Source: Candidatus Omnitrophota bacterium (GTDB lineage Bacteria > Omnitrophota > Gorgyraeia > VGKN01). From it: a DNA stretch of 64,000 bases. Every line of letters starts with the position of its first letter. Position 1 is the stretch's first letter. Made by a program: the position numbers and the translations under genes. Shown piece after piece: positions 37,301-63,081 of the stretch. The notes under the pieces were generated by a model that made no database searches, had not been told where the DNA came from, and saw nothing but the letters and a program-made list of their open reading frames with translations. The stretch lies in contig JAGVOB010000004.1 of NCBI GenBank assembly GCA_020052955.1, positions 12,522 to 76,521 of the forward strand, read 5' to 3'.

Positions 37301-40300
37301 TATGCGAACATATTTTGAGAATATGCGAATCCTTATGGAAATCGGCTTCTCCAATAAGACAGTTCAGGAAAAAGGAAGGCTGGGTTACTGGACATTGTAT
37401 ATGACGCAGACAAACTCTGACAGGGCTCATATGGAAGAGTTGTTTAAGAACAGGGTGATTGTCGAGCAGATGCTCGGGCTAAGAGAATCCGATTATGTAA
37501 CCGCCTCGCGCGATTTGAGGGAGCAGATTTTAAAAATGCAGGATTGGTCTGGTGCGCAGTATGATTTAACGGTTAAAATGAAAGAGTTTGGCTTAAAACT
37601 CAAGGAATTTCAGGGCCAATGGGAACTTCAAGAAGAGGCTCTGCAGGGCCTTAAGCAAGAATTTGTCGCTATAAGGAAACAGCTTAAACAAGCAAGGGAT
37701 GCCCGCTTACAAATCAGGCTTGACCAAAGAAAAGGCCAAGCGCCAATAACGAGAAGCGAGATCAGCAGTATTTTGGCAAAGGCAGGAATGGGTTCTGGAA
37801 CCGGAGATACAACTTACTGGTATGACACAGTATATTCTATGGGCTGGGCAAGGAGGGATTTCGAGGATCTTGTAAATTATATGGGCAAGATTAAAAAATT
37901 ATTGAAAGACTTAGATCCAGAGAGACGGATAGACCCGATCCTCGCAGGCTATTACGCCATGTTAATGGTAAATGAGGGCTATAGTCTTGATGAAATCGGC
38001 ATTATTATAAACTATACATTGGAGATATATAGCGACCCTGGGATGAAAGATTTTATCAGGCTCAACCTCCATCCGGCAGATGCGGATATCGACAAGGCCT
38101 TAAACAATATGATTCACAGCTGGGCAAGATACAGGTACGATAATCAGCTTTCAAGGGATCAGCTTAAATTATTCCTTACAAATTTACCGGAGGTATTTGA
38201 AGTTCTTTATAATAACCCGAGCGAGACAGCGTTCACGAGGGTTTTATTAAAAGAGCCGGCTGTCGAAACTAGAAAAAGAGAGATATCCCTCGCATATTTT
38301 GACGTATTCGGGATTTTGCCGAGATGGGGAGACATAAAAATAGGCGAGGTTGCAGATCAGCAGGCATGGGAATATCTAAACAGCGGTTTATCCGTAGAAG
38401 AGATAAAATCGGAACTTCAGGCTAAAAGGGATAGAGGCGAAACCATCGCAGGAACAGTGCCAGAGGTTGTTAAAAAATATGGCATAAACGACCCGTATAT
38501 CCAACTCTTTAGAGAGTTGCTTTACAGATTTCCCTACAATGAGGCAGAACTCCTTGAGCTGAAAAAATCAAGCTTAAGCGATACCAGAGAGACTATTATG
38601 GCTTCCGAGGAATTCTTTAATATTCACTTGAGACAGATAGAGCCCGATGCGATGTACTGGACACAATTTATGATAGATAATAACATGACGCCTCGGCAAC
38701 TTGAGGAATATTTTAAGTTAAAGGCTACCTTAGGACCCGTTATACCGGAAGCCTTCATGGGACAGGCCGAACCTGAATTAAGAACCGATGATGAAATAAA
38801 GGCTGTAATCTCAGTTATGTTCAGGACCATACTCAAAAGAACATCGGCCAACGAATTAGAGCTGAACTTCTGGCTAAATGTGTATAGAACAGCCGAGGCC
38901 CAGGAGGAAGGGACCGGCTTTACAGAAATAGAGAATGAATTCTATGCTTCGCGAGAATACAGGGAAAAGGTATTGGGCGACCAATGGGATGGAACGAGAT
39001 TTATCTCTGACCGCATGGGAGAATTGAGAAGGCTGTTTATTGAGATATACGGTGAAGAGCCCTCGCGGAACATATTGATATATTACGCTGAAAGCACGGG
39101 CAGACCGCTGCGTTTTACAAGACCAGGCGATGGAAATATTGAAGCAGAATTGAGAGGATTTGAGACGATAGAGGAATTGGAGGAGAGTGCTTCAAACAGG
39201 AAAGATTATATAGAAAGATTCCAAGCCCAGGGGCAACTGCTAAACATACTTATGGAACAGAGCAATCTGTCATACTGGACAAATTTTATGAGAGTGGCAG
39301 GCAAGGACATCGCCTATATGGAGAGATATTTCAAAAACAGGGAATTTATAATAAGTCTAGGTTTATTTACCGATATAGGCGACATCGGTTTCTGGACACA
39401 GTTTATGACTGATATGGAACCTGTATTGATTAAGCAGAGGATAATCTCGGGACCCGGCGAGCCGATGCAGGAATTTATGAGAAAATATTTCGCCAATATG
39501 AACGTCCTTATGAGTATCGGTTTCTCCGATAAGACAGACCAGGAAAAGGGAGAGCTTGGATACTGGACGCTGTATATGACAGTGGCAAATAAAGACGCAT
39601 CATATATGAGAAAACTGTTTAACAACATAAAGACAGCGGAGGAACTGCTCGCAAGCCGGACGGGCCAGCCTCAGCTCACCGGAGAAGAAAAGATAGGCGA
39701 GGTGGGCTATTACGCCTCATTGATTACCGAATTTGATTTATCTCGGGAGGATGCGGAGGTTCTCATAAATACCGGGACAATGCCTCAGCAGCTTCGCGCA
39801 TGGGAGAGCGAGCGCAGGCTTGGGATTATCGAGGAGATATTCGCGAGGACGCTTTACATACCGGGCCTTATTATTACGGTGCAGGATAATTCTACCAATG
39901 AAGATGTAACCGGCACGTTGAAATTTTATATTTCCAATCTTTCCTCTCCGAGCAGATTGTTAGGCAAAAAGGATGCCCTTGTCGCCATAGAATCCATAAG
40001 GGTTATTGCAAGGGATTACGGAATCCCGGCAGAACTGCAGGATGAATTGCTTGGAACCTTATTTAGTATGTTAGACACCGCAACTCACCAGGAGAGAATA
40101 GCGATATACGGAACCATATCAGAGATTATATCGAGCCCGTCTGTTCCAAAGGCAACTTTTACTGCCGCATTTAAACGGATGTTTAATTCTTATACGCTTT
40201 CTCCCGATTTATACACGGAGCCCGAACTTGTGTGGGCGCTTAGGAATACACTTGAGAAAAGGGGAAATGACATCGATTATAGTGAATTTAAGATTTTAGC

Positions 40301-43300
40301 CGATACGGCGTTAAACGACTTAAGGACATCTAGAGATAACGCAAGGCGTGCCTCAGCGGCATCCACGCTTGGCCTGATGGTAGAACTCGGCATACTGCCG
40401 ATGGATTTATATGGGCCCACCTATAACGAGTTGCGCAAAATCATCGAAGACAAAAATCAGAACAGCCGCGTAAGAACAGCAGCCGTCTGGGGCATGTGGC
40501 GCATGGGCGTTCATAATCAAATCCCTGGTGCTGATATTGATATAGTTATAAATGACCTTATTGAAGTGGTTAAGACTGGTTATGATAATGAATATCAGTT
40601 GGCAGTTATAAGCCTTGGGAATCTCGCCGAATTAGGCATTATCCCGTATTACTTAATGGATGATGTAAATACAGCAATGCTAAACAGGCTCTCCACGCTT
40701 AATACTTATAGAGATATAGACGAGACAGTTAAGGCTATAATCAGGGTTAATGGAATCGGTAATGCCTCAGCCACCATAACCGCCAAAAATACATTAAACA
40801 AATTTACTGAAATACTTTCCAATCCTAATACTGATCCATATCTTAGAAAGAACATCGCAAATGCCATTAGCACAATAATAGAAAGAAGGGCAACCCTCGA
40901 GGCAGACCAGATTTTATTCAGGGATGTATCAAGGGTAATTTTAAGTTTAATGCAAACTGCCAAGAGTGATCCGGATGCAGATGTAAGAAGAGCAGCGATT
41001 TTATCCCTAAGCAGAATCTATCGGGCAATGGAAGATACGCTGTCGCTTGGTCCAAACGGTGTTTCTTATATTGAGGAAGGAGTTGCATTTTTACAAGACT
41101 TAAAAGACCCGCAGACTCAACCAGAAGTTATCATTGCCTTAGGTGACATTGCAAAGGTATATCCAGAGCAGACGTTGATGACAGGATTGGTGAATATAAG
41201 GGATTTTGAAATAAAACCCGGCGATACTGGAAGGATATATCAGGCTAAACTTTATACTGTTTGGAGATTAGCCTCAACCCATGTTGCAACAGAACAGGAA
41301 AGAGCCTACGCGATAAGTGTATTAAGAGGTGCTTTAAAGAATAAAGATTTTAGCACCCTAATAGCCATTGACGGGCTTGGCTGGCTGGGCTATACAGGCG
41401 CTATCCCCGCAGAGGATTTAGATGCTATTATAAGAGAAGTTATTGATGCCTCTAACTCAATGCCGCGGCAGATATATCCTGAGGTTCAGGGAGAGCTTGA
41501 GAGGAGATACTTTGAATATTCAATTCCAGCATCCCTAAGGGGTGTGGTAATGCTTGAGGATGCGGTTAGCGCAAATGCCCTTTGGCGTATGGTGGTTAAT
41601 CCTGAAGACAATGTGAATAGAGAAAGCGCGCTAACAACCATTGTTACCTATGGAATACAAAACGAGACCGTTAAACCCTCTTTACACAGGGCACTTACCT
41701 GGGCTGCCTCAGCTATTCTTACAGATGTTGACACAAAACAGACTCAAGCAGGAAATCTCTTACACCTTGTATTGTCGGATTTAAATTCTGGCACAAGTTC
41801 CATAGGCATAAGACGCCAGGAAGCATTGCTTCTTGTTAGCATAGTAAAAGGGAGAGAATTGTCAGGTGATTTACAGGCTTTGGCAATCAATGCGTTGGTG
41901 GATTATTTAGGAGACCCTGTAATAGGCAACGAGGTTGTTGAATCCATAATTGATTTAGCCACAAGGCAGACTACATCTCAACCTGTTTTAGATGGGCTTA
42001 ATACGAGGCTTGATATTCTGTCCCTCACAGCTGATAAAGCCACTCTGGAGCGCATAGAAAGGATTAAAAATGCTATAACTGCTATCACCCAGGATAAGAG
42101 CGCAAGGCCGTTATATTCAAAATTGTTCTTTGGACCCTCTGGGACATTTGCAGAAACCGATGTATGGACACCCTATGGAGTATTAAGGGGCACCTTAGGT
42201 TATAACCTTGCAAAATGGGATGATATTAATATTAATGCAACAAGCGGTTTATTGGTGATAGGTTTGGATACTACCATCTCCCAGAGTTCGGAGTTAGAGG
42301 CATATGCCAATTTAAAGCACCTTGCGGTTATGATTAACCCTCAGGATACTCGCGGAGTATACCTGGATGCAATGCTCTCCGGAAATGATGCCCAGTTAAG
42401 AAAACTTATAACTGTGCTAAAAGGGAGCTCTAATGAGGTAACACTTGTTTTGTCTCCTGACCTTTCAAGGCCCGAGCAGGCAATGGCGTTTATTTCATAT
42501 ATCAACACGATAATTGAAAAAGCAGGCGGCCCTGGTAAAATACGTATTGCCTTGGCTGTCGGCACCGATGTCTCAGAAGGGACACTACAGGCTATGTTTG
42601 ACCAAAAAGACATTTCTCTGGTAAGCGAAGTGTATATCATCGGCACAAGATATGGCCAGGAAAGCCCGAGCGGTTATATAACTCCCTATGAGCTCTTTGG
42701 AGCAACCTACAGGCAGGTCGAAACATTGAAAATTCCTGTATCCATTGTCCTCCCGGCAGGAAGAGAGTTAGAATATGATGCCTCCTGGATTGAGCAGTTA
42801 AAATCAGAGATAGTACCCGGCGGAAGACTATCGAGATATACAAAAGCAGTCTATCATTATGGCTCACCGGATGAACTTTTCTTGCACGAGGAATCTGCTC
42901 AAAAGGCTCTTCAGGATACGATAGCCGCTGTCGGAGAAAGCAAGCTATCTGATCTTGAGAAACTTTATAAAGATACACTAGGCCTCACCGGCCGCGGAAT
43001 TATGGAAGGGAATTTTGAAAAGGTGGCACAGGGGCTATGGGGGAATATGCCATTTTTAGTTAAACTGTTATTTTTTATCCCAGTTTACGCCTTACTCGCT
43101 TTGATATTTAATAGGTTTATTCTGGCAAGGAGAAAAATTTCCATATTATATCTAGATATAACGAAAGAAATCCGAAATAAAATTTCAGCCTCAGCCACCT
43201 ATTCTACTTATAATTTCAAAATGGTTTTGGCTATTTCAATTGCTATTATGGCAACTTCTCTAATATTGGGGGTATCAATGCCATGGGTTTTTGCTCGAGG

Positions 43301-46300
43301 AAATGAGCTTATCACCCTCCGTACTCCAAAGCCAACTATCTCTGATATAGGGAGGATTACCACTTCTGTAACACCGGCTCCTGCAAGCGACACATCTATT
43401 GTGGTGGATATGGCAAGCGCTGACTGGAACGGCCTTACAAGGCTTATCTCAGATAAGGGGCTTGTGTTTGATAAGGGAACTATTGATTTAAATAAGATAA
43501 TCATTGGGAATTTAAACGGCAATATCTCTGCATTCGGCAGTTATCTCGCAGCAATTGTTTCAGCAAGGGATATGGGGATTATCACTGATGAAGAAGCAAA
43601 AATAAGGATAATGCAGACACTAAATGCGCTCCAGACGCTACCTCGTGATAATAACGGTTTCTTATACTCGTGGTATGATGCCCAGACAGGAAGGCCTCAG
43701 CCCATCACGGGTTATGCAATGGTTGATGGAAAACTCCAGCAGGTTACAGGCTATCACGTCTCCTCTCTTGATAATGGCCTTCTGGATTTGGCTTTAGAGG
43801 GAATAAGAGAAGCCTATAGGGATGACGAAGAAATCACTCCAATTATAGATAGCCTGCTTAGCCATAACTACTCTGCATTCTATGATACAGAGAAGCAGAT
43901 GCTTGGAGTGGGCTATTTTGATGTCCTTGGAAACCTCTATTATGAAACCAGTCACTATAGCACCTGGGGTTCTGAGGCAAGGGCAGTTGTGGTATATGCT
44001 GAGGCAAAGGGCGACATACCCTCCGGCACATTTGCAAATCTTTATTCTAATGTAAAAGGCTATACCACTGAGGCAGGAGAGGAGATTTTAACCACCAGTT
44101 TCTTCCAGGGCTCTGGCCATCAGGTCTTTGTGCCGGAGATATTCTTGGGAGAGAGCAGGATGTCGCCTCAGGCAAGGGCAATTCTGTTAAATTATTCAGC
44201 CATAATGCTGGATAAGGGTGTATTTATCAGCGCAGCAGAAAGCCCGATATGGTATATCGCAGATGCAGGAATCAAAGATGTCAGCGAAAATGATGTTAGG
44301 GAAGACCTGCTTGTTCCCTATGCCATATGGCTTGCCGCTTCTGTTAACCCCCAGGAGATGACAAATAGACTCAACCAGCTAAGACAAGATCATCCCGAGA
44401 TGTTCTCTACCCAATTCGGCTTTGCTGACAGTATGGTTACACAGGATGGTGGTTTAGGAGAAGCAGGCACCGTAACCCGAAAGGTTCTTGCCATTGACCA
44501 CGCCTGGTCTATTATGAGCGCTTATTCTGCCATTGACGAAGACGGCGGATTTAGCAAATATGTCAGGCAGTCAGATATAGGAACAAGAATAGCCACTGTA
44601 TATCAGGGCATAGATAATCAGACTCGCGATGCCGTTCGTCCGAGACAGGTTCCTCATGTTCCTGTAGGTATTATAGCAGGAATTACAATTAGTATCGTTG
44701 GCGTTATTGTAGGAATTGTTCTATTAATCTTAGGTATAAGGCGCTCTAAAGAAAAAGCCCGGCCGCAACCCGAAACAGGCGTTACGCCTACTCCGGAAAC
44801 ACTACCTTCTCAGGAAACGCTGTCATCTCAACCTGAAGCAGCCCCGCAAGTGTCTCAAATGGCTATAATTGGCGGACGCGCACCACCTCTAAGAGATTTA
44901 AGTCTTTCGCCTAAAGAAAGGATAACCCGAGCGCTTGTCCAGCTTACCGATGTTAGCGTAGAAGATATAGATTTTGAAAGCATTGAAGTGGAATACGAAA
45001 CACCAACCGGATTTGTATATATAGTAAAAACAAAAATAACTAAGAAAAAATTCTTTGTTGAGATAGTCAGGCGTTATGACAGGGATAAGGCTCCGTTTAA
45101 AGTTACTGTCAATGACAAAGAAATTCCATTTGCAGAAGGCGAGTATATCAAGGTCGCAGATGGTAAGAGAAAGGTATTAGGCTTATATTATAACTTAAGC
45201 GCTATAAAAGGATTTAGCCCGAGTAGCGAAGACGCCACTAGAATTCGAGAAAGAGAAGAAAGGTATTATAATAATGTTTTAGGGTTTGTCCAGGAAATCG
45301 CCTCTAATCCCCAAAGCGTTCCCAGATATATTATAAATCTTGAGGGTATAAATACAGAAAAAAGCGAGTTAAGAAATAAGATAGGCCTTCTTAATCAGAA
45401 TATAGCAACCCTCCCGGAAGGATATAGAGCAGAGATAACCAATACTACTCCTAACGAAGAATTACCAATTCAACTTACTCTTTTACCCACCTCTCAACAA
45501 ACAGCAAGACAGATTTCAGAGGATGAATTAGATGCTATAAGAGTTAAAACCAAAGAGGCAGAATTAGCTGAGGCTGGAAAATTAGTCTCCCAGACAGTTA
45601 CACAAACAAAGCCTGTTCCATCCGAAATAAGAGGGTTCTTTAACAAAATCGGCGCTATCCTAAAAGGTGAGTATTTCTATAATGGCGCGGATTTAACAAA
45701 GGCAACTGCTCCATTTTATTACTTAAAGGTGGTAAAGAAGGTTAATGAAAAGGGTGAAGCAGTAGATGAAACAGAGTTTCAGAAATGGGCTTTAGTAAGG
45801 GATATAGCCCTTGTCTCAATACTCGGAATAATAATTGCATCAGTTTCTATTTTAGGAATATACACAATTCCGACTATACTTGCTGTAGGTTTAGTCACTG
45901 GTTTTGGACTAATTGTTAAAGGAATTCAGGCAAGGTATGAAAAGGGGTTTAAGATAGGCCTTATTGTCAGTGCATTTAGTTTTATATCTTTATTTGTCGC
46001 ACCCCTTTTAGCCCTTTCTATAACAGGCATCATTATAGGTTTTGCAAGTATTTCTGGGTATGGTTTTGGTAAATGGATTTTAAAACAAAAGGCAGAGACT
46101 CCCATAATAGGTATTATAGCTTTGCCAATTTCACTTCTTGGCATAGTTGCTGGTTTGGGAATAATCTCTGTCTTTGCCATTAATGTTGCTGTTGCTTTTG
46201 TAGCTTTTGCCTATGGCATATATAAATGGAGAAAAGAAGAGGATATCTCTGCAGTTGTAAAGCCCTTTGCAATTTCTGTTTTTATGCTCTCCCTTTTACC

Positions 46301-49300
46301 AGAGGGTATAACACCTCTTGTAGCAGGCACAATTACCTCGCTTGTTGGCATTGGCGCAGGCACTGCCATTACGTCAGGAGCCCTTGTAGCGCTTATGGTT
46401 ATAGGATTACTCCTGGGTATTGTTATGTCATTAGTTCCAGCGGTCCTTGGTTCTTCTACCGGAAGAAGATATATAGCAGGTTTTGGCTTAATTTTAACAA
46501 TCTCAGGCTTCCTTAATCTATTAGGAATCTCCCTTCCAGTTTTATCTATTTTACCAGGTATAACAGCAATCTTTGTAGGCATAGCTTTCATAATGCCGCT
46601 TGTCTTAAGTTTAATTGTAAAGGCTATTACAGGAAAAGAGCCTGTTTTATCGTCCGCTTCAAGCAGGTTCGCAGCTTATCTGGGCATTACCCTTTTTGCA
46701 ACCTGTTTAGGCGGACTTGTGTTCTCAAGCGTTCTTAATTGGTCATTTGGGGATGCATTTGCCCTTTCAACCCTTTTGATAGGTTTTATTGGGACCTTCC
46801 ATATACCTCTTAAGGTGTTCTTGGACTGGGTTATTACGCGGCTTATGCCGCAGGAGGATATCGGAAAAGTTGAGGATATAGTCAACAACGGCGTTCCTGA
46901 CGAAGAAAGGACTATGTATTTCTGGACGCTTTATCAGTCTAGCCTTTCTACTATCGTACCTGCCTTCAAAAATATTGAGGAATGTGTAAGAAATAACAGG
47001 GATAAACTCTTTAGGACAATAACTGAAGCTGAAACTCAAGGTCAACAGGTAATTGACCTAACCGTTGACCCAACCTTAGGGCTTGAGGAAACACTCAGGC
47101 AATATTGGATTTCCCACAGGAATGATGCAAATTTCTTTAATAATATTTATGTAAAGATTACTGATGAAAGAGGCGCCGTTCATTACAGAAAGCCAAAGCG
47201 AAACAATATTCTCTTTAGCATTGCCTCTGCCGCAGAATACTGGCGTGGGGTTGAACCTATAGGACTTAAAGATATATTAGCAGAAAGGATATTGAGAGAT
47301 GAAGGTCTAAACATAGATAAAGATGAGCTTGAATTTATTGAATCTATGAAAAAGAAAGGCTTGGATAGATTAAATAAAAAGAGAAAACAAGCAAATCAAA
47401 AAGAACTTGAATGGTCAAAACTTGAACCAAAAGATTGGCGGGAGATATGGGAAGGGATAGTTCTACATTTAGTTACAGATACCACAAAACAACGAAGGAT
47501 ATTAATTCAGGTAGGGAAAATATCAACTTTATCTGAAAGAGTAGATAGAATAATAAAGAAAGGAAGAATCTTACCTGGTAAAATAGCAACTTTATCTTAC
47601 GGAGATGTTTACTATATAGATAATTCCAAAAAAGATGTTAACTTCTCCGAATTATTCTGGAGAGATTATCTGGCTGACTCAGATGGATTTTTTAGAAGGG
47701 TCTATGCAGTAAAACAGAGCGACGGCAAGATTATTTATCTTATGCCTGCAGAATATGCCTTATATCATCATCTCAAAGTCCAGGAGATAAGAGACGAATA
47801 TCCTGAAATTGAATTTTTAATCTTCCACTGGTCGCTTAGGCTCGGCGAATTCAAGTTCCAGAACGTTGAACTAAAAGCGGGCTTGTTTAATGATATATTT
47901 AAGGTGCTTGATGGGAATCTCTATGGCACAGTTGACCCCAACCGCCCCTATCAGCCCTCAGAGAATAAAGGAATGGGCAGGCAGATATTTGAAGTGATAG
48001 CAGGTGCCAATATAATAGATACATTACGCACCGGTGGAGGTAAAATTGGGGCAGGCAAAATTATAGGAACTGGAATTGACACGGATGCATTAGCAAGTAT
48101 TGGTGTTAGCGTGGATGAAAAAAATGGCAGGGTTGCTCTCACTGATGAGCATCTTGCTATCAAAAATACCTTTACAAGCGATGCAGAGATACGAAGCGAC
48201 AAGGATATGATAGCGGAGCTTGTTGCAAGAGCGGCATATCCCTCTCCGCTTAACCAGAGATATGGAACCTTCCAGATGGGGCTATACTTCTATAATCCTG
48301 AACTTTCAGATTTTGCCCGATTGACTGTAGAGGCACAAGAACGGCTCTGGTATACAGTTGAAGCGTCTCAATTGATGGGTGAAGAAGGAGCAGATTTCGG
48401 GAAAAATCTCAAGGTATTTAGAAGATACTGGGAAAAACTTTCTCTGATTCTGGATTTAGATACAGGCATTATCAAACTTAGAAGGACAGGTGAAATAGTT
48501 GGAAAACTTGATGATGAGAGGTTAAATTACTTCAGAGAAGTAATGCGCGCTACTGAATTTGCAAGAACTGCCAACGATTTTCTCCTGGATACCTTAAAAA
48601 TCACCGACCTTAAGAGAAGGGAACAGATTCTAAGAGACTTTGCAGCTGTTGTGGCTAAAAAAGCCATAGTAGGACCAGTGGATTTTGCTAAAGAATTTGA
48701 AGCGATAGTTAAAAAATTAGAGTCTACAATAGGGATAACATTAACCAAGTTACAGGAAATAGAGGAAAAGGTCAGAAGAAAATTTGATATTGCCCAGATG
48801 AAATTTTTCGCCCTTACTCCAAATTCCAAATTCCTAAGCCATGATACCTATGACACTGCCTATGGAGAGGCATTTATTGTTGGTTCGGTTAGGGCAGGTG
48901 ATTCAGCGGTAATCGGGCAGAGCGCAAACGATGCCCGTGCGGCAAGGTGGTGGAAAGGCGATGATAGAGCCCGGGATGCCGCAACACCTACTATGCCCAC
49001 CGAGCTTTATCCCTCAGCCAATGAGCTGACTCCACAGGTTAGAATAAGGAATGTCTTAAGGCCAAAGACAATATGGGAGGTGCGCTTAGTCAGAGTAGGC
49101 GGCTGGGAACTACAGCCATTGTTCCTATTGTGGTTAATAGTTGGAGCAGTTGGTATGATTTCAGGGCTTATCTCTATCTCAAGCGTTGAATTAGGCCTGA
49201 AACTATTTCTTTTTACTATGTTTATGATAATTGTTACCCCAAAGTTTGGCACCTTAAGGCGGATAAGGGACTTTCCAGTTATGATTTGGGAAACAATATC

Positions 49301-52300
49301 CACAACCATTATTTTAAATGCAAACCTTATCACTCTAAGCCTGGTTGTCATTAAGCAGGCAACGCTAAATCTAAAGAGTAAACTTGCCGGCATAAAACAG
49401 GCGTTTGCATGGACGCCTCAGGCAGATGTAGATAAACCAGAAGAATTTATGGAGGCAATCTATGGGCACGTCTCTGTTCTCAAAGCTGGTTTTATAATTT
49501 TATCTTTAATAGCTTTTCTCTCGTTTGGTATGACCCATTCAGCCAGCTGGATGGTTTTAGCGCTTCCGCAGGTTCTTGCATTTACGCTAAGTCCTATCTT
49601 TATGTGGCTTACCTCCCAGAGGCCAAGCACCTCTCTTAAGATTGCCTGGTTCGGTGTTATCCCGAGCATGGTTATGACAGGGCTCATTATGAAGATGATT
49701 AGTATTGGCGCGCCACTGATGCTTACACCCGGGGGTCCGATATGGACGGTGTCGGTAGCGGTCATTATGATAATAGGCGCAGCGCTTGGTGCTATTGCAG
49801 GCTATACCATCAGAAAGGGCCAGCTTATAAAAAGGAAAAAGGAGCAAAATATCCCTGTGCCGCCCATATGGTCTCCTAAAAACTTTAGAGATGTATTATT
49901 TTCAGTATCAAGGGGAAGTGTATTGTTTCCGGTATTAAAAGGTCTTGCCGGAGGGGTTTTAATTACTGCCTCAGCAATATTTACTGGTCCCTATACAGAG
50001 ATTACTACTCTTTATCCATTTGCTGTAGGCGCTATTATGGGAGCGATTATCAGCAGTGTTTTGATAAATGCCGGTTTTAGTCGGCAGAAAGATGAAGAAA
50101 AGAAAAAACTTAAAGTAGGTATTGAAAAATTTTCTGAACTTAATTCAACAGAGCAGAACATTGTCCATATGATTTATATCCTTCGCTGTATTAAGCCCGA
50201 CAGTGAGGCATTAAGGCTTTATGAATACACAGCACAAGGTTATGGTTTGAAGGTCCCAAGACTTGATAACGTATTAGAAGAATTTGACAGAGAATTTGCA
50301 GGATTGGATCCGAGACTGCTTGAAATTGCTAAAAAAGTTTATGAACTCCAGAAGACCTCACCCGATGATAAACCAGCCTTAAAGTATTATACAGAGTTAG
50401 CGAGGCGTAACGGATTATATGAAGAAAAACTTGAAAGAATTCTGGCAAGATTAGAGGGAATAGAAAAAGGTATAACCTCTACGCCTACTCTAACAGCCCA
50501 ACCAGAGCAGGCGATTACGCCAACCACACCAGCAGTTACTATAAAGCAGAGATTATCCTTGCTATTACCTAAATTGTTAAACCGCAAAGCAGTAATTATT
50601 ATGGGTATAGTTTTACTACTTGGCATAGTTACTATTTTAGCAGGTTTGATAATCTTACCAACGATGCAAATACCAACGGCTACGCAAGTGGTTGAAACTA
50701 TAACCAGAACTATTTCACAGATAACCCAGACAGCCACCGAAGTTGTAAATACCCTTACCCCAACTCCTACTACAACTCCAACGCCAGGCGTAACTCCTGC
50801 GCCATCTGCTACGCCCTTACCAGTAAGCCCTGCGCCAACAGTTACAGGAGCACCAGTAGCAGAGGCAACTCAAGCGGTAAATTTGATGATGTGGTTAATA
50901 GGCGGAGGTATTTTAGGTTTTATTGCATTAACCGCTCTCGGTGTTAGATTATATCTTCAAAGAAAAGTTTCGCAAAAACAAGCAATTGTAGCACAGGTTG
51001 CTCCTACCCCTCAACCTGCTTTATTTACTGCACCGCCTTCTGAATTTGAGGAAGCCCTGGAAGAAGCAAGAAATGCCGGCGTTTTGGAAGGAGAGCTTAT
51101 AGCAGTTGCTACAGTTGCGGATGTCAGGGCTCTTATAATTGTGCGCCAAGAGGCTGTAGCGCGTGCCAATAGGGCAGGCGTAATAACAGACCTCACAGGC
51201 ATTACCACAGCCGGTATCAATGGACTCGCTGAGTTTAAGGAAACTATATCCGAAGCGAAAGCCATAGGCGTTACAGAAGGAGAACTTAAGACAGCCAATA
51301 TCTCAGATGAAGTTAGAACCCTTATTACAGCCCGCCAGCAAGCAATTGAACGTGCCCAAAAAGCCAGCTTAACCATAGACTTCACTGGTATGACTGCAGC
51401 CGATATAAATAAACTCGCTGAGTTTGAAGAAGTTAAGGTTGAAGCAAGAACCGCAGGTGTTACTGACGCAGAAATCAATATAGTTGAAACTACACAGGCA
51501 CTTAGGACTCTTATTGCTTCTCGCCAAAACGCTGTTAGCCGTGCTGAAAAAGTGGGGTTAGAAACAGAAGAACTTAAAGAAAAACCTATAGCCGAGGCAA
51601 TAAAATTAGTTGAAAAAGCAGAAACCTTTACTTCGGTAACAGGGCTTTCTGTTCCAAAAGCGGAGTCTTCATACCGTCCGCTTATTAATCTTCCAAAAGA
51701 AGAATTAACAGAAAGGGCTAAAGCGTTAAGAGAGACTAACCTACCTGTTAAAGGATATTTATTAAGGTATAAATCAGAAACTATAAGGAATAAAGAAGCA
51801 ATAACTGAAGATTATGCCCAACCATTTAATTCTAGCACTGTCAGGATGAGCGAAGATAGAATTAAGGAGAGGTTTGAAAATGAGGTATCAAGAATTGCTA
51901 AATGGACTATCCCTCTGTTAAAGATGAAACTGAAAGAGGGCTCTGAGAATCATATGCGCTTGACAAGATACCTTGAGAGGCTTAGAGAATTAAAAGCCGC
52001 CCAGCCTGAATTATTTAAAAATACCTTAACGCAATCAGGATTAGATAATATCTACTTATTAAGAGAAGTTCTCTCTAAGAAATCTACCGCTACAGTCCAA
52101 TCTATGCTTGCCAACTTATTCACCTATGAGTTTGGCGGAAGGTATATGTGGCTAAACTGGATTACGAGGGTAATAGGGCTTCCTGCAATAATAGTTGAGG
52201 AACTTTCTCATTTTATTATGCATATATTTGCAAGACTCGGCATACCAAGAGTAAAAATATCCACTAAACTTTTGGGCATAGAGATAAGCGAAAGAGCACC

Positions 52301-55300
52301 TCCTATTGTTAAACTCATTGGCCCTGCATCTAATATCCTTCTTCTCATTGCCTCCATATTCCTTTATCTTCACACCGACCCCTCCACCCTAACTACAGGT
52401 TTATTTATCTGGTCAATATCTGCCTCAATACTTAGCATACTTACCGCAATATATGATTCTGCTAAATTCCAGACAGGGGATATTTACGAAGCGAGAGTAA
52501 GCTTTTTAATAGAAAGGTTGAAAAATTCTGATCGGGGTGTTTGTGCTAATGCTGCAATAGCTTTGGGTCAAATAGGCGACCCAAGAGCAGTTCCAGCTCT
52601 AATAGAAGCCTTAAAAGATAGAGATTGGTATGTCCGCTCCTGTGCCGCAACAGCCTTAGGCCAGATTGGTGACCCAAGAGTTCTATCAGCACTCAGGAGT
52701 TTACTTTTGCATACAAGCCCAATGGTGACATATACATATGAAGAAATAGAAACGCAATTTAGAGAGGGCTGGTTTGGATACTCTGGAGATTGGATATCGA
52801 TAGAAGTAATAAAAGAAGGAACAAAGTCCAATCCCGAATATACAGCTATTGAACAAGCAATAGCAGCTATTGAAGCTCGGATGGGAGAATTGCCAACCGG
52901 AACAGGTGTGGCAGGAAAGAATGCCCTTGCAGCCGCCGAATCATCCTTAGCCAATATCTTCTCCTATGCCTTTGGCGGAAGGTTTGCAAAGTTAAACTGG
53001 TTGCCACGACTAATATACCTTCCTTTTATGCTACTGCTGGATGAAGTTTTGCATATTAGCACTCATTTAGCCACAGGCTTTGGCATGCCTGAGTTTATAT
53101 GGAATACCAAATTTTTCGGCGTAAAGATAAACCCGAGGGCGCCGCCTATTGTAAAACTGATAAGTCCTATCATTCATATCCTGCTTATACCTGCCTCAAT
53201 CTTCTTATATTCCTTAGTAAAAGACCCAGCCGCTATACATACAGCACTGCTTATCTGGTCGCTCTCATTCTCAATATTAAGCCTATCTGCAAGCATACTC
53301 AGCAATATTAAATACAAGACAGGGGATTTATACTTAACTGCCCCCGCAATTGGCGGTGCCCTTGGCATCTGGAAGGACATTGGCTTAAAAGCCGAAGACC
53401 TAGCTAGTATAGGGTTTATGGAGGGTGCATTCTTTGGAAGCCTGTTGCTTTATAATATGTGGCTAGGCAATGTTTTTAAAATGATTGAGACAGGTTTTGG
53501 CACATTAAATATTACTCAACTCTCCACAGGTTTGTTTGCAGTCCCTGGCTCCCTATTTCTTTTTACAGGTATTATATTTATTGCCTACCTTCTCTTAGGT
53601 ATATTGTTTCCTTCTGAAGGAGTCTCCACAATAAAGAACGCGGGCCTCAAGACACATTTCTTGAGAGCACTAAATGCTACAGGCGTAGCTATGTCAGGCG
53701 TTTCTCTTGCAGGCGTACTCGCTTTATCCTTATCGCTGGCAGGCTTGCCAATTGGCGTCTCAGTTATTGTCGGAGTATTAACAGGGGCAGTTTTACATTC
53801 CTGGCTTAACTGGCAGGCCTACAGCAGAACCATCAAAGACAAGGCAAAGACTTCAGGCATCTTAACAACCCGTTCTATAAGCATTGGAATCTCATCAGGA
53901 CTTCTGATAGTGTTTACCAGCCTGTGTCTTAGCCTATTATCGTCAAAATTTGGATATTTAACCCCAGAATTTTTCACGCTTCCGATACCAGGTTTTTCTT
54001 ATATTATAAACGTTGGCCTTATGCTTTTAGATGTACCCAACAGATTCTTCTGGGTCCTTGGCAGCATGCCATTTCTTATATGGACGTTGGAGTCGTTTTT
54101 TAGAAAAGGGATATATAAAAGCCTTAAAAGAGGTAAATTCCTTCCTTCAACAGGTCGTTCAAGTTATTTTACGTTAAATGTAATACAGGCGCTTCTTTTT
54201 GCATCTTTTTCCGTCCCCTTTATGTATTTTTCATCCGCTGGAGCTATTCCATTGCTCATAGTATTTTTCTTCACAGGGCTTATGTATGGATTTATCTATG
54301 ATAGAGCGGGCATAACAGGTTCAATAAACGCCCATCTTGTCGTCAGTATTTTCGCGCTGCTTGGCACTGATAGTATGCTATCTTTTACAGTGCTCTTCGG
54401 GCTATTATTGGGGGTCAATATAACATTGTGGCTCATCTATTGGTTATTAATGCGGCCCTTGGCTGGACAGTTACCGCGAGAAGGGCATATAAAAACCGCT
54501 GAACCTTATCCGCATTTCTGGCAGGAATTAAACCTGATTATTCCAGAGTTTCATATTTCCCATGAGGCAATAAATGGCTGTGATTTCATACCTGCCGAAG
54601 AGGTCTTTAAGGAACATAATCGATTGATTTGGTATGAACATTCAGCTGAAAAGCCACAATTTGTATTTGATATTGAGGGCTTGGTTGAACCAGTAGAGAG
54701 AATACTCAAGTTAGAGAAGAGGATAATTAGCTTGCATGAATTGCAACTGGTTGATTCAGAAGAGGAGGCCCGCACGCTTTTACCGATAGCTATTCTTATA
54801 CTTGAATTGGAACGGGCGCAACTGCATCGGCTTATCAAGATTCAGCCAAAGGCAGATAATACACCCGTTGTATGTATGGAAATGATTCTCGCATTCTTCG
54901 CGGTTAGGCGTTTTCTGCTCTTCCCAAAATATGTTCGCCAGCAGATGATTGAATTTTATAAAAAGCGCGATGCAAATTTTGCAGATGTTCTTACCACCGC
55001 TGACCGGGCAATAGAGAAAAGTTATAACAAATTAACTCTTGCAGAAGGGCAAGAACTAGCATTGATGCGCGCTACTGGCATAAAGGTTAGCGATGATAAG
55101 GAAACAGTGCCAAACCTTATTGACTATAGCATATGGCTTAGCAGACAGGCGGGTGTTAGTCTATACCAAGATGACATTGAACGTGTAAAAAGTTTTGTTA
55201 GGAAGTTTTTAGCCGACAGGCTCAACACATACGGCTTCTCTGGCATGTCAAGGCAAAAGGTTATAGAGGATATAATCAGGCTTTGGCATGAGGAAGGTAA

Positions 55301-58300
55301 GGTAAGGATAGAAAAGGAGGATGAGCGTTCTCTTGAAGCCTTGATGGACTCTCTCATCCAACCCCACAGAGAAGAATTTAAACCTCTTGTTGAGCAATAC
55401 TGGGCTACTGAGGATAGTAAAAAACGGCAATCTTTGGAAACACGAATAAACGCCATAATGGATACCATAAACGTATACAAAGGCACAGAAGCATCTGAGC
55501 TTGAACTGGCTGATGTTCTGTCTTTGGATGAGTTCTTAGAAACCCCATATGCCCAAAGATACATAGAACTTGCAAAACATGCACTTCTATTTGGGCAGTA
55601 TATCCCGGAGTTTATATTTGCAGGTGCGGCAACAAGGCTTAATAAAAATTTAGAAGATTTAGGCTTACCTTCTACCGGTCCTATGTATCCATTAGATATC
55701 TGGAGTATTGCCGAAGAAGAAAAGATAGGTCTTATACCACCCAGCGGAGCACGCTTAAGACTTGGGATGGGGCCAAGACAGATTATCGCCTATAGGAGAT
55801 ACTTAGAGAACTTAGCCAGAGAGCAGGGTGTTAGTCCAAAGACAGTCCTTAAAAACCAAAGACTCGTCATCCATATAAACGATGAGATATTTGATATGGT
55901 CTTAGATGATTTTATCAAAAACGACTTTTATGGATTTAGTCCAGATAAGGTGTTCTTCATCAATGTAGACCTAAAATCAGGATATCTCCTTACTGAAGAG
56001 GGAAAACTCACCCCATCCAAAGATAGCCCAAAATTGCCCTATGGTCATGGCTATGCAAGTATGCAGATGGTAAAACCAGGCCTTGCCTTTACCATTGATA
56101 TATCGCAGCAATCTACAGATAGAAATAAACAACTCCGTTATCTTAAAGGAGATATGCTTAGTTATCTTATAGACCATGATGCGGCTTTAATTGGCACACA
56201 CAGGTTAAATGACCTAACCAAATTCACTCCAACTCAGGTTGTGGACATAGAAAAACTTGCCTTTGGTATGTATCTCATTGAACAAGGAAATGAGGTGATA
56301 GTGGATTCAGTTGAGAATCCGGAAAACCAGAAAGGCGGCCAGCTATTACAGAATAAGGATACAAGGAAGAAATTTCTTATAGAAGTTTCCAATTTTAGAG
56401 GAAGCCCGGGGCTTGATTCGTTGATTAAAAGAGGCGTAAATGTGCCATACAATGCCTTTAGACTCTTATATGACCTTAAAGCAGCAAAGAGGCTTCTTTT
56501 TCAGGGGATTTCTTATAATGTAAGATTTAAGGATGGTTACTTCTATTTAGAATCTGTAACAGGAGATGTTACCCAGCTTATAGATGCCAAAGTTGCAGGT
56601 ATTAAAAGACAAGGTGAGCTAATCCACGACTTCAAAGAACTCGATAATCTTAACGACGCACTTACATTCTTAGGGCAAAGCGATGAAGAGATTAGGGTTG
56701 GCAAACTGATAGAGTTTTTTGAAGAGGACGCGGTTAAGAAAATAATAAAGCGTCTTGGTGGAATGGAAGGAAGAGCAGTTATTCTTATAGGAGGAACTCC
56801 AGGCGCAGGCCTCAAATATTTTGCAAATGTAATACTTAATGAACTTGGAAAGAGAAATAGGCGCGCTAACATCCTTTCTGCTTATAATTATTATAAAGAC
56901 TGGACAGAGATGCCACACAGGAAAGATGGTACCCTTGATTTTGAATCGCCTCATAGCCTTGATATAGAGTTGTTGAGGTCACACGTTAAAGAACTGCTTA
57001 AAGGTAATACTGTGCAGATTCCTCAATATGACTTTACAGAAGGCAGAAGAACAGATATGACAACCAGCATAAGGCTTGAGGAGGGCGAGGTGTTGATTCT
57101 TGAGGCTATTCATGGTTTAAGCGATGAATTTTTAGCAATGGCAGAAGGTGTGCCTGTGGTTAAAGTGTTTGTTGATTCAGATGAAAACATTCGGCTCCTT
57201 CGCAGGATGGGTGAATATGCAAGTGAAAGAAAAATAGACCCTATAGTAACCATAGAAAGATGGGATCGGGTTAAAGAGGCCGAGGTTTCCTTTGCGAACC
57301 CCACAAGGCAGAAAGCAGAACTTGTTGTTAACACAGGAGATGTTGTGGAATTTAGGAAAAATGAAGTTTCCAAGATGCTTCCTGTTTTAAATAGTGCCTT
57401 GAACAGGGCTTTACAAGAGAACAAACACAGCGTTGCTGATAAGATTAAAGAACTCCAGCGATTCTTAAGCAGTCTGCCTATTGAGTCGATGGATAAATTA
57501 ATTAAGGCTGCAAGGTCAAAACTGGCTATGCACAAGAAACCGGTAGTTATTGCTATAGATGGCATACATGGAGTTGGAAAGACAAGCACTGCAGAATTAC
57601 TCGCAGGAATCATAGACGGAATTTACATATCCCTTGGCGAGATATACCGTGTGGTTACCTGGCTTGGGTTAGAATACGGTTTAGATATCCATAATCCAGA
57701 AGATATCGCAAAACTTAGAGGATTTTTATCGCAGATAACGACTCTTGAAAAAGACTATCACGTTAGGTTCATATGCGTCAAGGACGATGCACCTTTAGAC
57801 ATTACCGAAGAACTGTACACAGAGCGAATCAGCAAAAATGTGTCTGATTTTGCAGAATATATTCATAATGAAGTAATAGAGTTTTCTAGGGAAATTGTGG
57901 GAGCCCTCAAGAAAAGAGGTAAAAACGTGATAATTGAAGGACGGATTGCAGGCACTCACATCGCACCCGACGCCGATGCAAAAGTCTTCCTAAACGCAGA
58001 TTATATTACAACAGCCTCAAGAAGGGTAGAACAATATATACAAGAAGCCGATATCTCTGGGGAACCTATGATTTTCAAGACCTCATGGGAAAGGCTTATT
58101 GCAAAACTTAAGAAAGTATATTTTGAGGTATTTGGTCCTATGAGCGAAGAGGATTTTGAACACAGACTTACATTATATGGCTACGAGGGCCTAAAAAATG
58201 AATTACTGGCTGAAATAAACTTACGACTTAAAGCAAGAGACGAAAGAGACGAAAATCATATCGAACAATATATGCCCCCCGTAGATGCCAAAGTGACCCA

Positions 58301-61300
58301 GGATATAATAAGAGTTGACACAACTGAGCTAAATATAAATCTTGTTGCAGAACTTATACTGGAACTTTTGACAGATGTATTTGCAAAAAGAGTCTCCGGT
58401 CTTAGTCCGCCATTTAAAAAATTTGACAACTTCCTTGAATATTACAATTACCTGGTAGATGAGAGAATGCATTTTGCCCAAGAGCAGGGCTGGATTAAGA
58501 AAATAAATTGGCAGATTGAAGAAGCGGCAATGGATTATACGGGAAGACCGGCTCAGATAGAAGTTACAGGAGAATCAGCAGAAGGCCGTTCACAGGAAGC
58601 AAGAAAGATTTTAAGGTGGATATTCAAAACAAGTCAAACACGCTATGACTTTATAGAATATTTGAGGCATTATCAGGTAGGCCATACCTCGCGCAATAGG
58701 CTTACTCCGTTATATGTAGCAGTGTATAACTATCTTTCCGAAAGGCCGCTTAACGATAGAAGGGTTATGGATGAAAATCCCGGCCTATTTATAGATAATC
58801 TTACAATTAAAAGCCATCCCTGGTATGGAGATTATGATTTGGCTAAAGAAGGTTTTGAGCCTAAAGAAGATATTACTCTTCCTGTTCCTCAAAAAAGGAA
58901 GATAAGAATACTGCTTATTGGACATGCTGAGAAATTCGGACATCCAGAAACATCCTCAAGCACGCTGTTAAGGGAGATACTTAGCAGGCTCCCCGCAGAT
59001 AAATATGAGATTGAGATTGTAGCCAATGACGTTATTTATCAGGAAGTAATCCACGATTTTTCTGGGGATGGTTCTTATCAACGCAGGATAGGCTATCAAT
59101 TTGAGCAGGATGGCGAATTCTACGATACAGAGAAAGGCGTTAAGTTTGTAAAACTTGATATAAATAACCCTCGTCAAAATCTATTAAGCGAGGATTTTCA
59201 GCCAGATGGCAAGTATGATATTGTTATTAACTCAAGGCTCGCCGTTCAATATGGTGAATACGAGGAAAAAGTAAGCCAAATCAGAAAAAATTCTATGCAA
59301 TATTTAGCCGAAGGAGGAATTTTATTTTTTGATACAGAAACCACAGACCGCGCGGAAGTTATCCGGTTACAAGACGGAGTGTTCGTAGTACAAGAAAGGG
59401 TTATACCTTATCTTGATATATGGGCATATACGAAGAAGATAAAGCGGATTGTATTAGATGATAAAGGTACTCAGAGGGTAACAGATAAGCATAGAGATTT
59501 AATAGAAAGAGCATTTAGGCTGGCCGAAAGATATGCTGATATAAATACACCTATGTATGACAAGGCAGTAGTGGCAGACCTCTTGAGAAGGATAGACGAA
59601 GATTATCTTTTTATGCTCGCGGTTTTACTCTCAGGCGTCTCTATAGAAAAGATAAAAAAGCATTTTGACCCTGATATAGTTGAAAGACTTATCGCGATGA
59701 GAAAACATATGAAAGAGATTACGCCTGAGCCAGCTTCCCGTGTCGGGGAGTTTAATATCTTGCGCTCGAAATCCTGGTTTAATATCTCATTGGAAGGGCA
59801 AGCTATAGAAGACCTGAGACTTATCTATTCAGATGGAATATATGAAATTTACTTAGGCAGAATAGACAAAAGAGAGGTATTGTTAATAGATAAAAGATAT
59901 AAAGGTAAGTTTATAAGAAGAGCATTGTCAATTGAAGAACCTCGGTATACAGAAGACGAACAGATATTTAAAAAAGCTGTTGCTTATTATCTAGAATATG
60001 CATATCGGGAAGTTGGCGAGAGTGTTTTATCCAGTGCCCATAGAGCATGGCGCTTATACAATTCTTATAACTTGTCCGATAGAAGGCCAGGCCCATGGTC
60101 TAATACGTGGTTAAGATTTTATGTTGCAGCAGTTATTCTCCATCGTCTTAAAGTAGAATTGTATAATGATATTTTAAATATACTCTCACGGCTTGATAGC
60201 GGTCAGGCCGTAGATATCGCTAAAGAAACAAGAACTCTCTCGCAAAAGCATAAGCTGGCACAAGAAGAAATAGAAGAATTACAGGAGATGATTGTCTACG
60301 CCTTCAATCCCCAAAAAATTATGCATAGGATAAATACTAAAACATCGAGAAGAATGCTTAACAATTTATTTAACCGCATGAGCAAACCCAAAGGAAAATT
60401 TTCTAGTAAACAAAAAGAAGAGATTATGCGGCTTTTCCCTGCGCTTAATCAATTCTCCCCGGAGGCGTTAAATCATGTTATGAGAGTAATAGAATCTATA
60501 AGCAGGCTTGCTAAGGGGGATATCAAATACTTCGAAGATGGTCTTAGCGCTGAAGATAAAGCACTTATGGCAGAGGAAGGTCTTGAGCGCTATAGAGCAC
60601 ACATACAGGAACTTCATATGAGATATCGTAATCTTATGCAGACCAATCCAAGCAATAAGACAATATTATGGCTGGCAGTTATTTTTCATGATATTGGTTA
60701 TACCATATCCGGAAGTCATAGTCATAACCACCAGAGATTAGGAGTAGATATAGCAAGAAAGGCTTTAAGTGAGCTTGGGTATTTTGAAGAAGAAATCGAG
60801 TTAATTACCAAATTGATAGAAAATCATACAGCCACAGGAGAAGTCTCAATCGGAGAAAGGTCAGCGCGTTCGGCGTTAAAGATTCTTGAGGTAGAGGATG
60901 TGGATAGGCAACAAGATTTTGCCAATATGCTGTTAGTCCTTAACTCAATGGATCTGGCAGGATATGAGGAAGCAAGAAATAGGCTTAATCTGTTCTGGGT
61001 TGAAAGATATGTAGGTAACTCAAATATCGGTAGATTGAAAAATAAAGACTCCGATACTGAAAATTATATTGATAGATTAGAAAGGCTTACCTGCAGCCAT
61101 ATTATGGAAAAAGATAACCCGCAAAAACGCCAAATGATACACTCTGCAGTAGATAGTCTTATTGCATCGGATGAAATAGGATTATTCAAACGTCATTTTA
61201 ATAGCACGCTCGAAGTTCTTTTTATACTTCCTATTGTATTTTATTTGGCAGGAAATGACCCAACCTATAGGAGTTCAGTTAAGTTATTCCGCTTCTTGAC

Positions 61301-62585: not shown

Positions 62586-62608
62586 CCGTATCATTTTTAA
62601 TGTAACAT
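62583..62608 (+). other. conserved stop-codon context / 3' flank element (copy 2)
   Basis: TAACCGTATCATTTTTAATGTAAC. See the copy at 925-950. Confidence 0.5.
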
Positions 62609-62689
62609 ATTAAAAAATAAATATTTATGAAATAATAACTAAAGTTGAGTTTTAAGGTTTAGGTTAAGGCAAAATGAAAAAGCCAGAGG

Positions 62690-62870
62690 TCATAGGCGAT
62701 AAGCCATAAGCACAGAATTAGAGGGCAAATGAAGCCTTCCATAACTCCTAGGGCTATTATCCCTCCCTTTGCTCGGGATGGTGAGCGTTAGGTGAACCAA
62801 AGGGTGCGGTTTTCCCCTCGTTTAGCTCGAAACTCTGCTGGCCGCGAATGTTAAATGGGTAATTTATAGT
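62690..62870 (+). other. GC-enriched island inside otherwise AT-rich intergenic DNA (possible small structured RNA or terminator-like element; unassigned)
   Basis: ...gggctattatccctccctttgctcgggatggtgagcgttaggtgaaccaaagggtgcggttttcccctcgtttagctcgaaactctgctggccgcg. Contains the inverted repeat CCCTTTG...CAAAGGG followed by GCGGTTTT. Confidence 0.15.
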
Positions 62871-63081
62871 AAGAATAAACAAAATTTAGATGTTTGGGTA
62901 TTGTAATTTTATTTTTGTTGGGTATACTTTTAGTAGTGGATAGTAGGAAATAAAGGTTATTTTTTTTAGTGACTTAAAAAGGGTGTTTAAAATTATTAAA
63001 AAATGTTTTTAATTAATGATATTTTATATGTACTTTCTAACATATTATAATAACATTTTCCTTAATTAAAGGGTGTAACAA

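Follow-up and report, generated by a model that had tools for sequence, protein, structure and literature searches.

Three paralogous copies of a rare membrane domain, probably related to site-2 proteases, in a giant Omnitrophota protein

We analysed a 64,000-nucleotide stretch of DNA from a Candidatus Omnitrophota bacterium (GenBank assembly GCA_020052955.1, contig JAGVOB010000004.1, positions 12,522 to 76,521 of the forward strand), hereafter called the window, and focused on its interval 52108-62100. A sequence-only reading had noticed there three related membrane modules carrying motifs at the position of a zinc-binding HExxH, together with a CPBP-like core, and had taken them for intramembrane-protease equipment. 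Rather than separate genes, the interval holds the C-terminal sixth of a single giant open reading frame (ORF), which contains every element of the finding, and all the motifs named by that reading were found in place within this single ORF. Judged by their sequences, the three modules, named M-A, M-B and M-C, are paralogs, each a copy of one very rare and uncatalogued membrane domain that is quite probably homologous to the site-2 protease (S2P) clan. Their coordinates in the window, with the corresponding amino acids (aa) of the giant, are as follows.

1359..62585, + strand: giant ORF of 20,408 aa (codons), ATG start.
52071..52508, + strand, aa 16905-17050: M-A module, a variant with Glu for the first His of HExxH.
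52911..53348, + strand, aa 17185-17330: M-B module, of M-A-like build, with Asp for the first His.
61596..62108, + strand, aa 20080-20250: M-C module, the sole one of the giant's three copies with an intact HExxH.

The homology of the three modules was borne out by direct comparison. M-A and M-B share 47% identity over 142 aa (E 3e-34), and M-C, which is 26% identical to M-A over 77 aa (E 6e-7), is a distant paralog. When the 20,408-aa giant was searched with a profile of the three modules, exactly three copies were obtained and no fourth. A GGRF/LNW-type segment is present in all of them, as GGRYMWLNW in M-A (nt 52134, aa 16926), GGRFAKLNW in M-B (nt 52974, aa 17206) and KGRFAFLNW in M-C (nt 61653, aa 20099). 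The APPIVKLI segment, previously listed as common to the three, occurs only in M-A (nt 52296) and M-B (nt 53139), its equivalent in M-C being SPPETKY. As had been proposed, M-C alone keeps the HExxH motif, in the form HEGLH (nt 61716, aa 20120-20124), where M-A has EELSH (nt 52197) and M-B has DEVLH (nt 53040; D17228-E17229-x-x-H17232). M-A consists of LANLF-GGRYMWLNW-R, a helix with E16947-E16948-x-x-H16951, RAPPIVKLIGPASN, a two-helix transmembrane (TM) hairpin and TGD. M-C opens with KGRFAFLN20106W-x2-R20110 and the helix bearing H20120-E20121-G-L-H20124, and continues with a predicted beta-hairpin, a 27-aa insert, a TM helix (N20197), a second TM helix (E20236) and G20241-E20242.

The domain is also very rare outside this protein. 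A HMMER search of 1.84 billion representative proteins with the three-copy profile retrieved 7 relatives only (E 4e-34 to 7e-4). All seven are 1,084-5,101 aa long, several being fragments at contig ends, and there is no free-standing member among them. Three carry the label of Candidatus Omnitrophota metagenome-assembled genomes (MAGs), namely P0001, P0002 and P0005, and one is labelled Elusimicrobiota. P0001 is collinear with the end of the giant, an HD domain being followed by a module (32% identity to aa 19685-20244, E 4e-52, BLASTP). Its module is 68% identical to M-C and retains HEGLH, and with the domain downstream the order becomes HD, module, methyltransferase. P0002 is of the EExxH type and has an accession number adjacent to that of P0001; because the two proteins carry the same MAG label, the HEGLH and EExxH sub-types probably coexist in a second genome. 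P0005 has its module flanked by an ATP-binding PPDK_N domain and a 6-phosphogluconolactonase domain. P0003 is encoded by a complete gene (5,101 aa) amid housekeeping genes on a 52-kb contig, and has four modules, all with an intact HExxH. Scans of genome contigs and metagenome contigs gave no relative. A word-indexed protein search with the three-module and 13-module profiles gave no match either, though relatives exist in that collection, probably because hydrophobic words swamped the candidate lists.

Two observations on these relatives can be recorded here. By eye, P0003 and P0004 appear to have a common N-terminal region within aa 1-600 of each (IHIQDSHASLSAQYSI... in P0003, VVLVQDAHGIYSAQKNI... 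in P0004). Moreover, at the P0003 locus (L013, 6001-21306), a near-identical xSLLANLFxGRLSFLNW precedes each of the four modules and is more conserved than its flanks. This segment could be a candidate recognition or cleavage site.

We then aligned the 13 copies of the domain with MAFFT. At an overall identity of only 22-30%, a common build is visible: [S]LLANLF-GR-x2-LNW-x2-R, a helix with [H/E/D/Q]-E-x-x-H, a short beta-hairpin, two TM helices and Gly-Asp/Glu. The first TM helix carries an Asn of the GPxxN type, and the Gly-Asp/Glu stands right after the last helix. The Asn of LNW, the Glu and the second His of HExxH, and the Gly of the terminal Gly-Asp/Glu are invariant in all 13 copies; the Arg of LNWxxR and the Asn of the first TM helix (GPxSN) are near-invariant. 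In the first-His column, His is found eight times, Glu three times (M-A included), Asp once (M-B) and Gln once, and these replacements are all potential metal ligands. As the terminal acid, 11 copies have Asp and two have Glu. In the HExxH-intact copies a Glu is also found within the final TM helix, as N-x6-E in P3a-d, P5 and P7 and as LVEF in M-C. A co-loss of this TM3 Glu with the first His was considered and dropped: in M-A, P4 and P6a an Asp, and in P2b a His, is retained close by, in an ambiguous register. Conservation of the catalytic residues, on which the sequence-only reading wished to see its proposal judged, was found for the Glu and the second His in every copy, whereas the first His is kept in only 8 of 13. 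By this alignment M-A and M-B are not merely decayed copies, the first-His substitution being common to relatives from other genomes. One could imagine that the modules resemble zinc proteases only by accident, an HExxH having arisen in a hydrophobic helix, given that the motif is short and that all the family matches described below are sub-threshold. However, with the Glu and the His invariant over 13 copies from different genomes, we regard such a coincidence as very improbable.

The kinship of the domain was approached through Pfam, known structures and modelling. M-C has sub-threshold matches to DUF3267 (E 0.001, 19.8 bits) and to M50B (E 0.11). Only three protease families were matched among the 13 copies, always below threshold, with DUF3267 found in three, M50B in three and M50 in two. 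P1, the M-C ortholog-like module of P0001, matches DUF3267 at E 3.2e-4 (21.5 bits, profile positions 5-83 of 108), and P5 matches positions 2-97 of 108 (16.4 bits). P5 also gives the family's best M50 (PF02163) score, 22.7 bits (E 6.8e-5), which covers the HExxH helix only. The Pfam gathering cut-offs are 27.2 bits for PF02163, 27.1 bits for PF11667 (DUF3267) and 22.4 bits for PF02517 (CPBP), and PF02163 gave no match for M-A, M-B or M-C. The likeness to intramembrane proteases put forward in the earlier reading thus stands as a sub-threshold kinship with M50, M50B and DUF3267, while the curated models fail the strict HMM test that this reading had set for itself. Among 177,635 PDB sequences, the top three for the family profile were Aquifex RseP (E 0.016), SpoIVFB (E 0.027) and MjS2P (E 0.05), and the alignment to these site-2 proteases spans the HExxH and the GPxxN helix. 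An AlphaFold2 (AF2) model of M-C built from the 13-copy alignment (pLDDT 71.8) shows the succession helix (HExxH), beta-hairpin, helix, helix. TmcP of Staphylococcus aureus, a DUF3267 protein, is an experimentally supported minimal protease of the S2P clan, with an HExxH and an Asp 90 residues on (H68/D158) (PMC13252029, a 2026 preprint). In P1, the distance from the His to the Glu of LIEF is 89 residues by a hand count on the P0001 sequence, the alignment register being uncertain there; M-C carries the same Glu after its 27-aa insert. Altogether, we hold it quite probable on these alignments that the modules are homologous to the S2P clan (MEROPS clan MM). We infer that the domain is a minimal S2P-type zincin, and that it forms a new, yet smaller branch of the clan, outside M50 and DUF3267 as these are defined.

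The distribution of charged residues bears on where this domain would work. Lys and Arg are abundant before the HExxH helix, in the loop after it and after the last helix, and scarce in the TM2-TM3 loop. Because of these counts, and of the cytoplasmic-type enzymes flanking the module in P0005, both module ends and the HExxH helix probably lie at the cytoplasmic face. The HExxH helix had been viewed as intramembrane; the charge distribution suggests a position at the cytoplasmic face instead. As for catalysis, we give M-C an even chance of being an active zinc protease, with H20120, E20121, H20124 and either E20236 or E20242 as third ligand as its putative zinc site. For M-A and M-B, a role as non-catalytic or altered-metal partners (substrate holders, gates or anchors) is more likely than protease activity, by analogy with known families. 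Indeed, in zincin families the change of the first His to Glu is over-represented, evolutionarily conserved and coexists with active paralogs (Lenart et al. 2013, PMC3650047).

Alternatively, all three modules may be non-catalytic two-helix anchors, that is pseudoproteases tethering enzyme arrays to the inner membrane, the HExxH of M-C being an ancestral relic. Elsewhere the modules do lie between cytoplasmic-type enzymes, as in PPDK_N/module/6-phosphogluconolactonase (P0005) and HD/module/methyltransferase (P0001); the first His is missing in 5 of the 13 copies, the Pro-x4-Asp-Gly hallmark of S2Ps is absent from the modules, and there are known cases of substituted zincins that act as decoys or accessory proteins (PMC3650047). 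However, a mere anchor would not retain the Glu, the second His and the Gly-Asp/Glu in 13 of 13 copies at 22-30% identity. Moreover, the full HExxH persists in eight copies, including all four of one 5,101-aa protein, and the first His is replaced by potential ligands (Glu, Asp or Gln) and not at random. We therefore consider a purely anchoring role for all three modules somewhat unlikely, and keep the view of a minimal S2P-like family with M-C as its candidate protease.

Between M-B and M-C lies a further membrane region, Domain C, followed by a block of nucleotide enzymes. The C-terminal order is M-A, HEAT, M-B, Domain C, nucleotide-enzyme block, M-C and a 160-residue tail, so that the cytoplasmic-type enzymes (uridine kinase-like, cytidylate kinase-like, HD) are bracketed by membrane elements on both ends.

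52500..52718, + strand, aa 17048-17119: HEAT repeats between M-A and M-B (Pfam HEAT_2 E 3.4e-19, HEAT_PBS E 3.8e-12).
53511..54473, + strand, aa 17385-17705: Domain C, a polytopic membrane region with about 9-10 predicted helices (hydropathy scan).
54045..54353, + strand, aa 17563-17665: putative CPBP/Rce1-like core in Domain C (profile, tblastn alignment).
56778..57341, + strand, aa 18474-18660: uridine kinase/PRK-like P-loop domain (Pfam PRK E 1.4e-17; NCBIfam uridine kinase match E 9e-34, under the cut-off).
57549..58046, + strand, aa 18731-18895: cytidylate kinase-like domain (Pfam Cytidylate_kin E 7.6e-25).
60627..60848, + strand, aa 19757-19829: HD domain directly upstream of M-C (Pfam HD E 1.1e-6).

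The sequence-only reading had seen CPBP motifs in Domain C, and ESFFRKG (nt 54090) and TGSINAH (nt 54315) are indeed there. In motif 1 (E-E-x3-R), L17577-E17578-S-F-F-R17582, the first Glu is replaced by Leu and the second Glu and the Arg are kept. Motif 2 (F-x3-H) reads F17614-A-S-F-S, with no His at or near the aligned position, and in motif 3 (H-x3-N/D), H17659-L-V-V-S17663, the His is kept and the Asn has become Ser. A tblastn search with aa 17540-17705 against 7.3 Gb of plasmids gave as its only long matches Xanthomonas genes annotated as CPBP endopeptidase, at E 5. The best of them is a genuine PF02517 protein, the bounds of its domain agree with those of the aligned stretch, and all three motifs align in register between the two proteins: TLESFFRKG of Domain C corresponds to AEEVFFRGY, and YGFIYDRAGITGSINAHLVVSI to YGLAYRRAGLIGAIAAHAALNI. 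A CPBP profile of 11 genuine domains (10 when the Xanthomonas sequence was left out) had its only match in the giant at aa 17563-17665, scoring 21.4 bits (16.8 without Xanthomonas) there, where none of 5,000 shuffles exceeded 13.1 (13.3), a margin to be read with some selection bias in mind, the family having been picked through Domain C's own best match. The similarity to CPBP is probably real but very remote.

It is conceivable that Domain C is a polytopic region unrelated to CPBP, its E-S-F-F-R and H-x3-S motifs having arisen by chance. The PF02517 model, which the earlier reading had proposed to run, gives no match even at E <= 10; there is no PDB sequence match and no homolog of the CPBP-like core in the word-indexed protein search, the database-level E of tblastn is only 5, and three catalytic positions are not conserved. 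However, all the long plasmid matches are annotated CPBP genes, the best with coincident limits, the motifs are in register, and the profile score lies above every shuffle, so that we find an accidental likeness doubtful, though it deserves to be kept in mind. Domain C is probably a highly divergent CPBP/Rce1-like domain, now inactive, in which two or three catalytic residues are gone. With substitutions at the first Glu of EExxxR, at the motif-2 His and at the motif-3 Asn, it is unlikely to work as a glutamic protease. These three residues, the lack of a match to curated models and the position inside a giant are what sets Domain C apart from PF02517 proteins. Its single-sequence AF2 model is all-helical and of low confidence (pLDDT 48.7), and thus unusable.

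Possible substrates for M-C are suggested by sites far upstream in the same chain. The internal lipobox sites that had been reported are present, in the form of five clean lipoprotein-type signal peptides, each with an n-region rich in Lys and Arg, a hydrophobic core, L-[AT]-[AS]-C and a Pro/Thr-rich linker.

Window 11787, 15312, 16401, 17613 and 25308: internal lipoprotein-type signal peptides, with the Cys at aa 3477, 4652, 5015, 5419 and 7984.
Window 10962, 12252 and 15591: other HExxH motifs far upstream of M-C, at aa 3202 (TLVHEISHRW), 3632 (TLRHEFVHFV) and 4745 (YLLHEEEHLS).

The lipoboxes suggest internal cleavage and lipidation by signal peptidase II at five points of the giant. HExxH occurs four times in the giant against 0.2 expected from composition. 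Two of the upstream motifs sit 155 and 93 residues past an internal lipobox Cys, and none of the three upstream segments has a Pfam match at E <= 1. These three regions may be uncatalogued extracytoplasmic zincins.

We propose the following scenario. The nucleotide-enzyme block would be held at the membrane by M-B plus Domain C before it and by M-C after it. M-C, as a zinc protease at the cytoplasmic membrane face, would cut membrane-proximal or transmembrane segments, its candidate substrates being the giant itself or the signal-peptide or anchor stubs left after lipoprotein-type cleavage at the five lipoboxes. Its partners, non-catalytic or altered-metal, would be M-A, M-B and perhaps Domain C, in the manner of the TmcE/TmcP pair and of substituted zincins. 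Taken as a whole (a minimal S2P-like family, M-C as protease, M-A and M-B as variants, anchoring of the enzyme block), we judge the chances of this scenario to be evenly balanced.

Several points weigh against it. No module reaches any curated Pfam or NCBIfam threshold, and as the 13 copies represent few lineages and some of them are paralogs, conservation in 13 of 13 is not a count of independent cases. The S2P hallmark Pro-x4-Asp-Gly (N-x2-P-x4-D-G, LDG) is absent from the 13-copy alignment, and the third metal ligand is ambiguous (the TM3 Glu or the terminal Gly-Asp/Glu), the MAFFT register being uncertain there. The HExxH helix is moderately hydrophobic, under the hydropathy threshold, and probably does not span the membrane, unlike that of S2Ps. 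As to structure, the M-C model is only of medium confidence, its best Foldseek match in the PDB has E 0.6 with no S2P found, and with E. coli RseP hhalign pairs no more than 24 columns, those around HExxH (probability 13%). Finally, the modules and the lipobox sites are linked only by their presence in one polypeptide.

This last point concerns the substrate in particular. M-C might be an active S2P-like enzyme working in trans, either clearing free signal peptides in the way of RseP or processing a regulatory or exported membrane protein. The known enzymes of the clan, RseP (PMC9401612) and TmcP (PMC13252029), act in trans, and no cis cleavage site is marked in the sequence of the giant. However, the family is found only inside very long multi-domain proteins, in seven of seven matches and never as a free-standing gene, and multiple copies per protein (three here, four in P0003) are hard to fit with a housekeeping trans protease. 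We thus rate such a trans enzyme as unlikely. The idea of self-processing of the giant, raised in the earlier reading, would on sequence grounds have an equally low probability. A broader possibility is that the giant is a self-contained export-and-processing polyprotein, in which a SecY/SecA-like unit would be combined with "site-1" cuts by signal peptidase II and a "site-2" activity of M-C, with M-A, M-B and Domain C as holders; M-C would then cut the remaining membrane stubs, releasing or rearranging pieces. We regard this polyprotein arrangement as a long shot. If true, it would parallel, in bacteria, the maturation of viral polyproteins, with a domain family exclusive to giant proteins.

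The giant as a whole contains about 80 hydrophobic segments (hydropathy scan), in a window of even G+C content (38-46%). The further domains identified are the following.

Window 3993-4919, + strand, aa 879-1187: SecY domain (Pfam E 4.8e-36, profile nearly full-length).
Window 5769-6308, + strand, aa 1471-1650: divergent SecA_DEAD domain (Pfam E 3.6e-9).
Mid-giant, aa ~13148-13221: a further HEAT region.
Window ~43533-43826, + strand, aa ~14059-14156: DUF3131 (E 6.8e-8).

Internal segmental duplications are also visible. The largest, aa 8493-9511 against 9456-10430 (window ~26835-29891 against ~29724-32648), is 71% and 45% identical; another, aa 7601-7915 against 8016-8320, is 42% identical, and smaller ones pair aa 4928-5000 with 5333-5404, 2786-2891 with 3407-3526, and 11913-12000 with 12632-12725. 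To judge from these repeats, tandem duplication accounts for part of the growth of the giant, M-A/M-B being an example. Outside the giant, the sole other sizeable ORF in the window lies upstream (139-927, 262 aa, TTG start) and has a hydrophobic N-terminal part; taken with either of two alternative starts, it had no entry in the exact-match collection. In the 1.4 kb downstream (62586-64000) the longest ORF has at most 73 aa. The tRNA and Rfam scans were empty for the window, and likewise for 62586-64000 at the gathering threshold.

What do these modules bring to the study of giant proteins? Bacterial giants reach 20,000 to 150,000 residues, and whether they work as one chain or as cut pieces is the question on which the module family bears. 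M-C offers a concrete target, with three residues to mutate and a domain of about 170 residues to express, and since it shares its chain with five lipoprotein-type signal peptides the processing question becomes testable. The family would extend the S2P clan to a core smaller than DUF3267, and provides a natural His-to-Glu/Asp/Gln series of zinc-site variants. The host protein class and the S2P clan were known; the module family is new, as is its multi-copy arrangement with a conserved His-to-Glu/Asp sub-type.

The protein as a whole resembles the giants described in Omnitrophota (bioRxiv 10.1101/2023.11.21.568195; 10.64898/2026.06.07.730766), with its ORF of more than 20,000 aa, many TM segments, divergent SecA_DEAD and multi-enzyme content with kinases, HD and HEAT scaffolding. 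Indeed, it has the length (>7,000 aa), the many TM segments and the divergent SecA_DEAD by which this type was defined (10.1101/2023.11.21.568195). Both surveys raise proteolytic processing and propose C39 and S8 peptidase domains for it, whereas our domain scans detected neither in the present giant. The 2023 paper discusses fused SecA domains, names SecY once and never mentions a lipobox (10.1101/2023.11.21.568195), and M50, site-2, lipobox and SecY are all absent from the wording of the 2026 survey (10.64898/2026.06.07.730766). A SecY fused within a giant ORF looks unreported, and the module family is not mentioned in the literature searched on Omnitrophota giants.

Compared with the M50 proteases (PF02163; RseP, SpoIVFB, MjS2P), the module has in common, in its predicted build, the HExxH helix, the beta-hairpin, the helix with a GPxxN-like Asn and an active site expected near the cytoplasmic face. 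It differs by its fewer helices, by the lack of Pro-x4-Asp-Gly, PDZ and CBS, and by an HExxH helix that probably does not cross the membrane. A further parallel is DUF3267 (PF11667, "putative zincin peptidase"), the Pfam near-match of longest coverage: a small membrane zincin with an early HExxH and a distal acidic residue about 90 residues on, devoid of the gating helices of full S2Ps. However, DUF3267 proteins are free-standing and mostly have four TM helices, whereas the module has three helices and occurs in multiple copies within very long proteins, scoring 19.8-21.5 bits against a cut-off of 27.1. The LANLF-GR-LNW-R segment and the terminal Gly-Asp/Glu are specific to the module family, and its distal ligand may be a Glu where that of TmcP is an Asp. 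TmcP itself lacks gate helices and requires a two-TM partner, TmcE (PMC13252029), a hint at what the substituted copies M-A and M-B could do. As in substituted zincins, first-His-to-Glu variants are found here beside potentially active paralogs; the difference is that, in the giant, the variant and intact copies are domains of one polypeptide.

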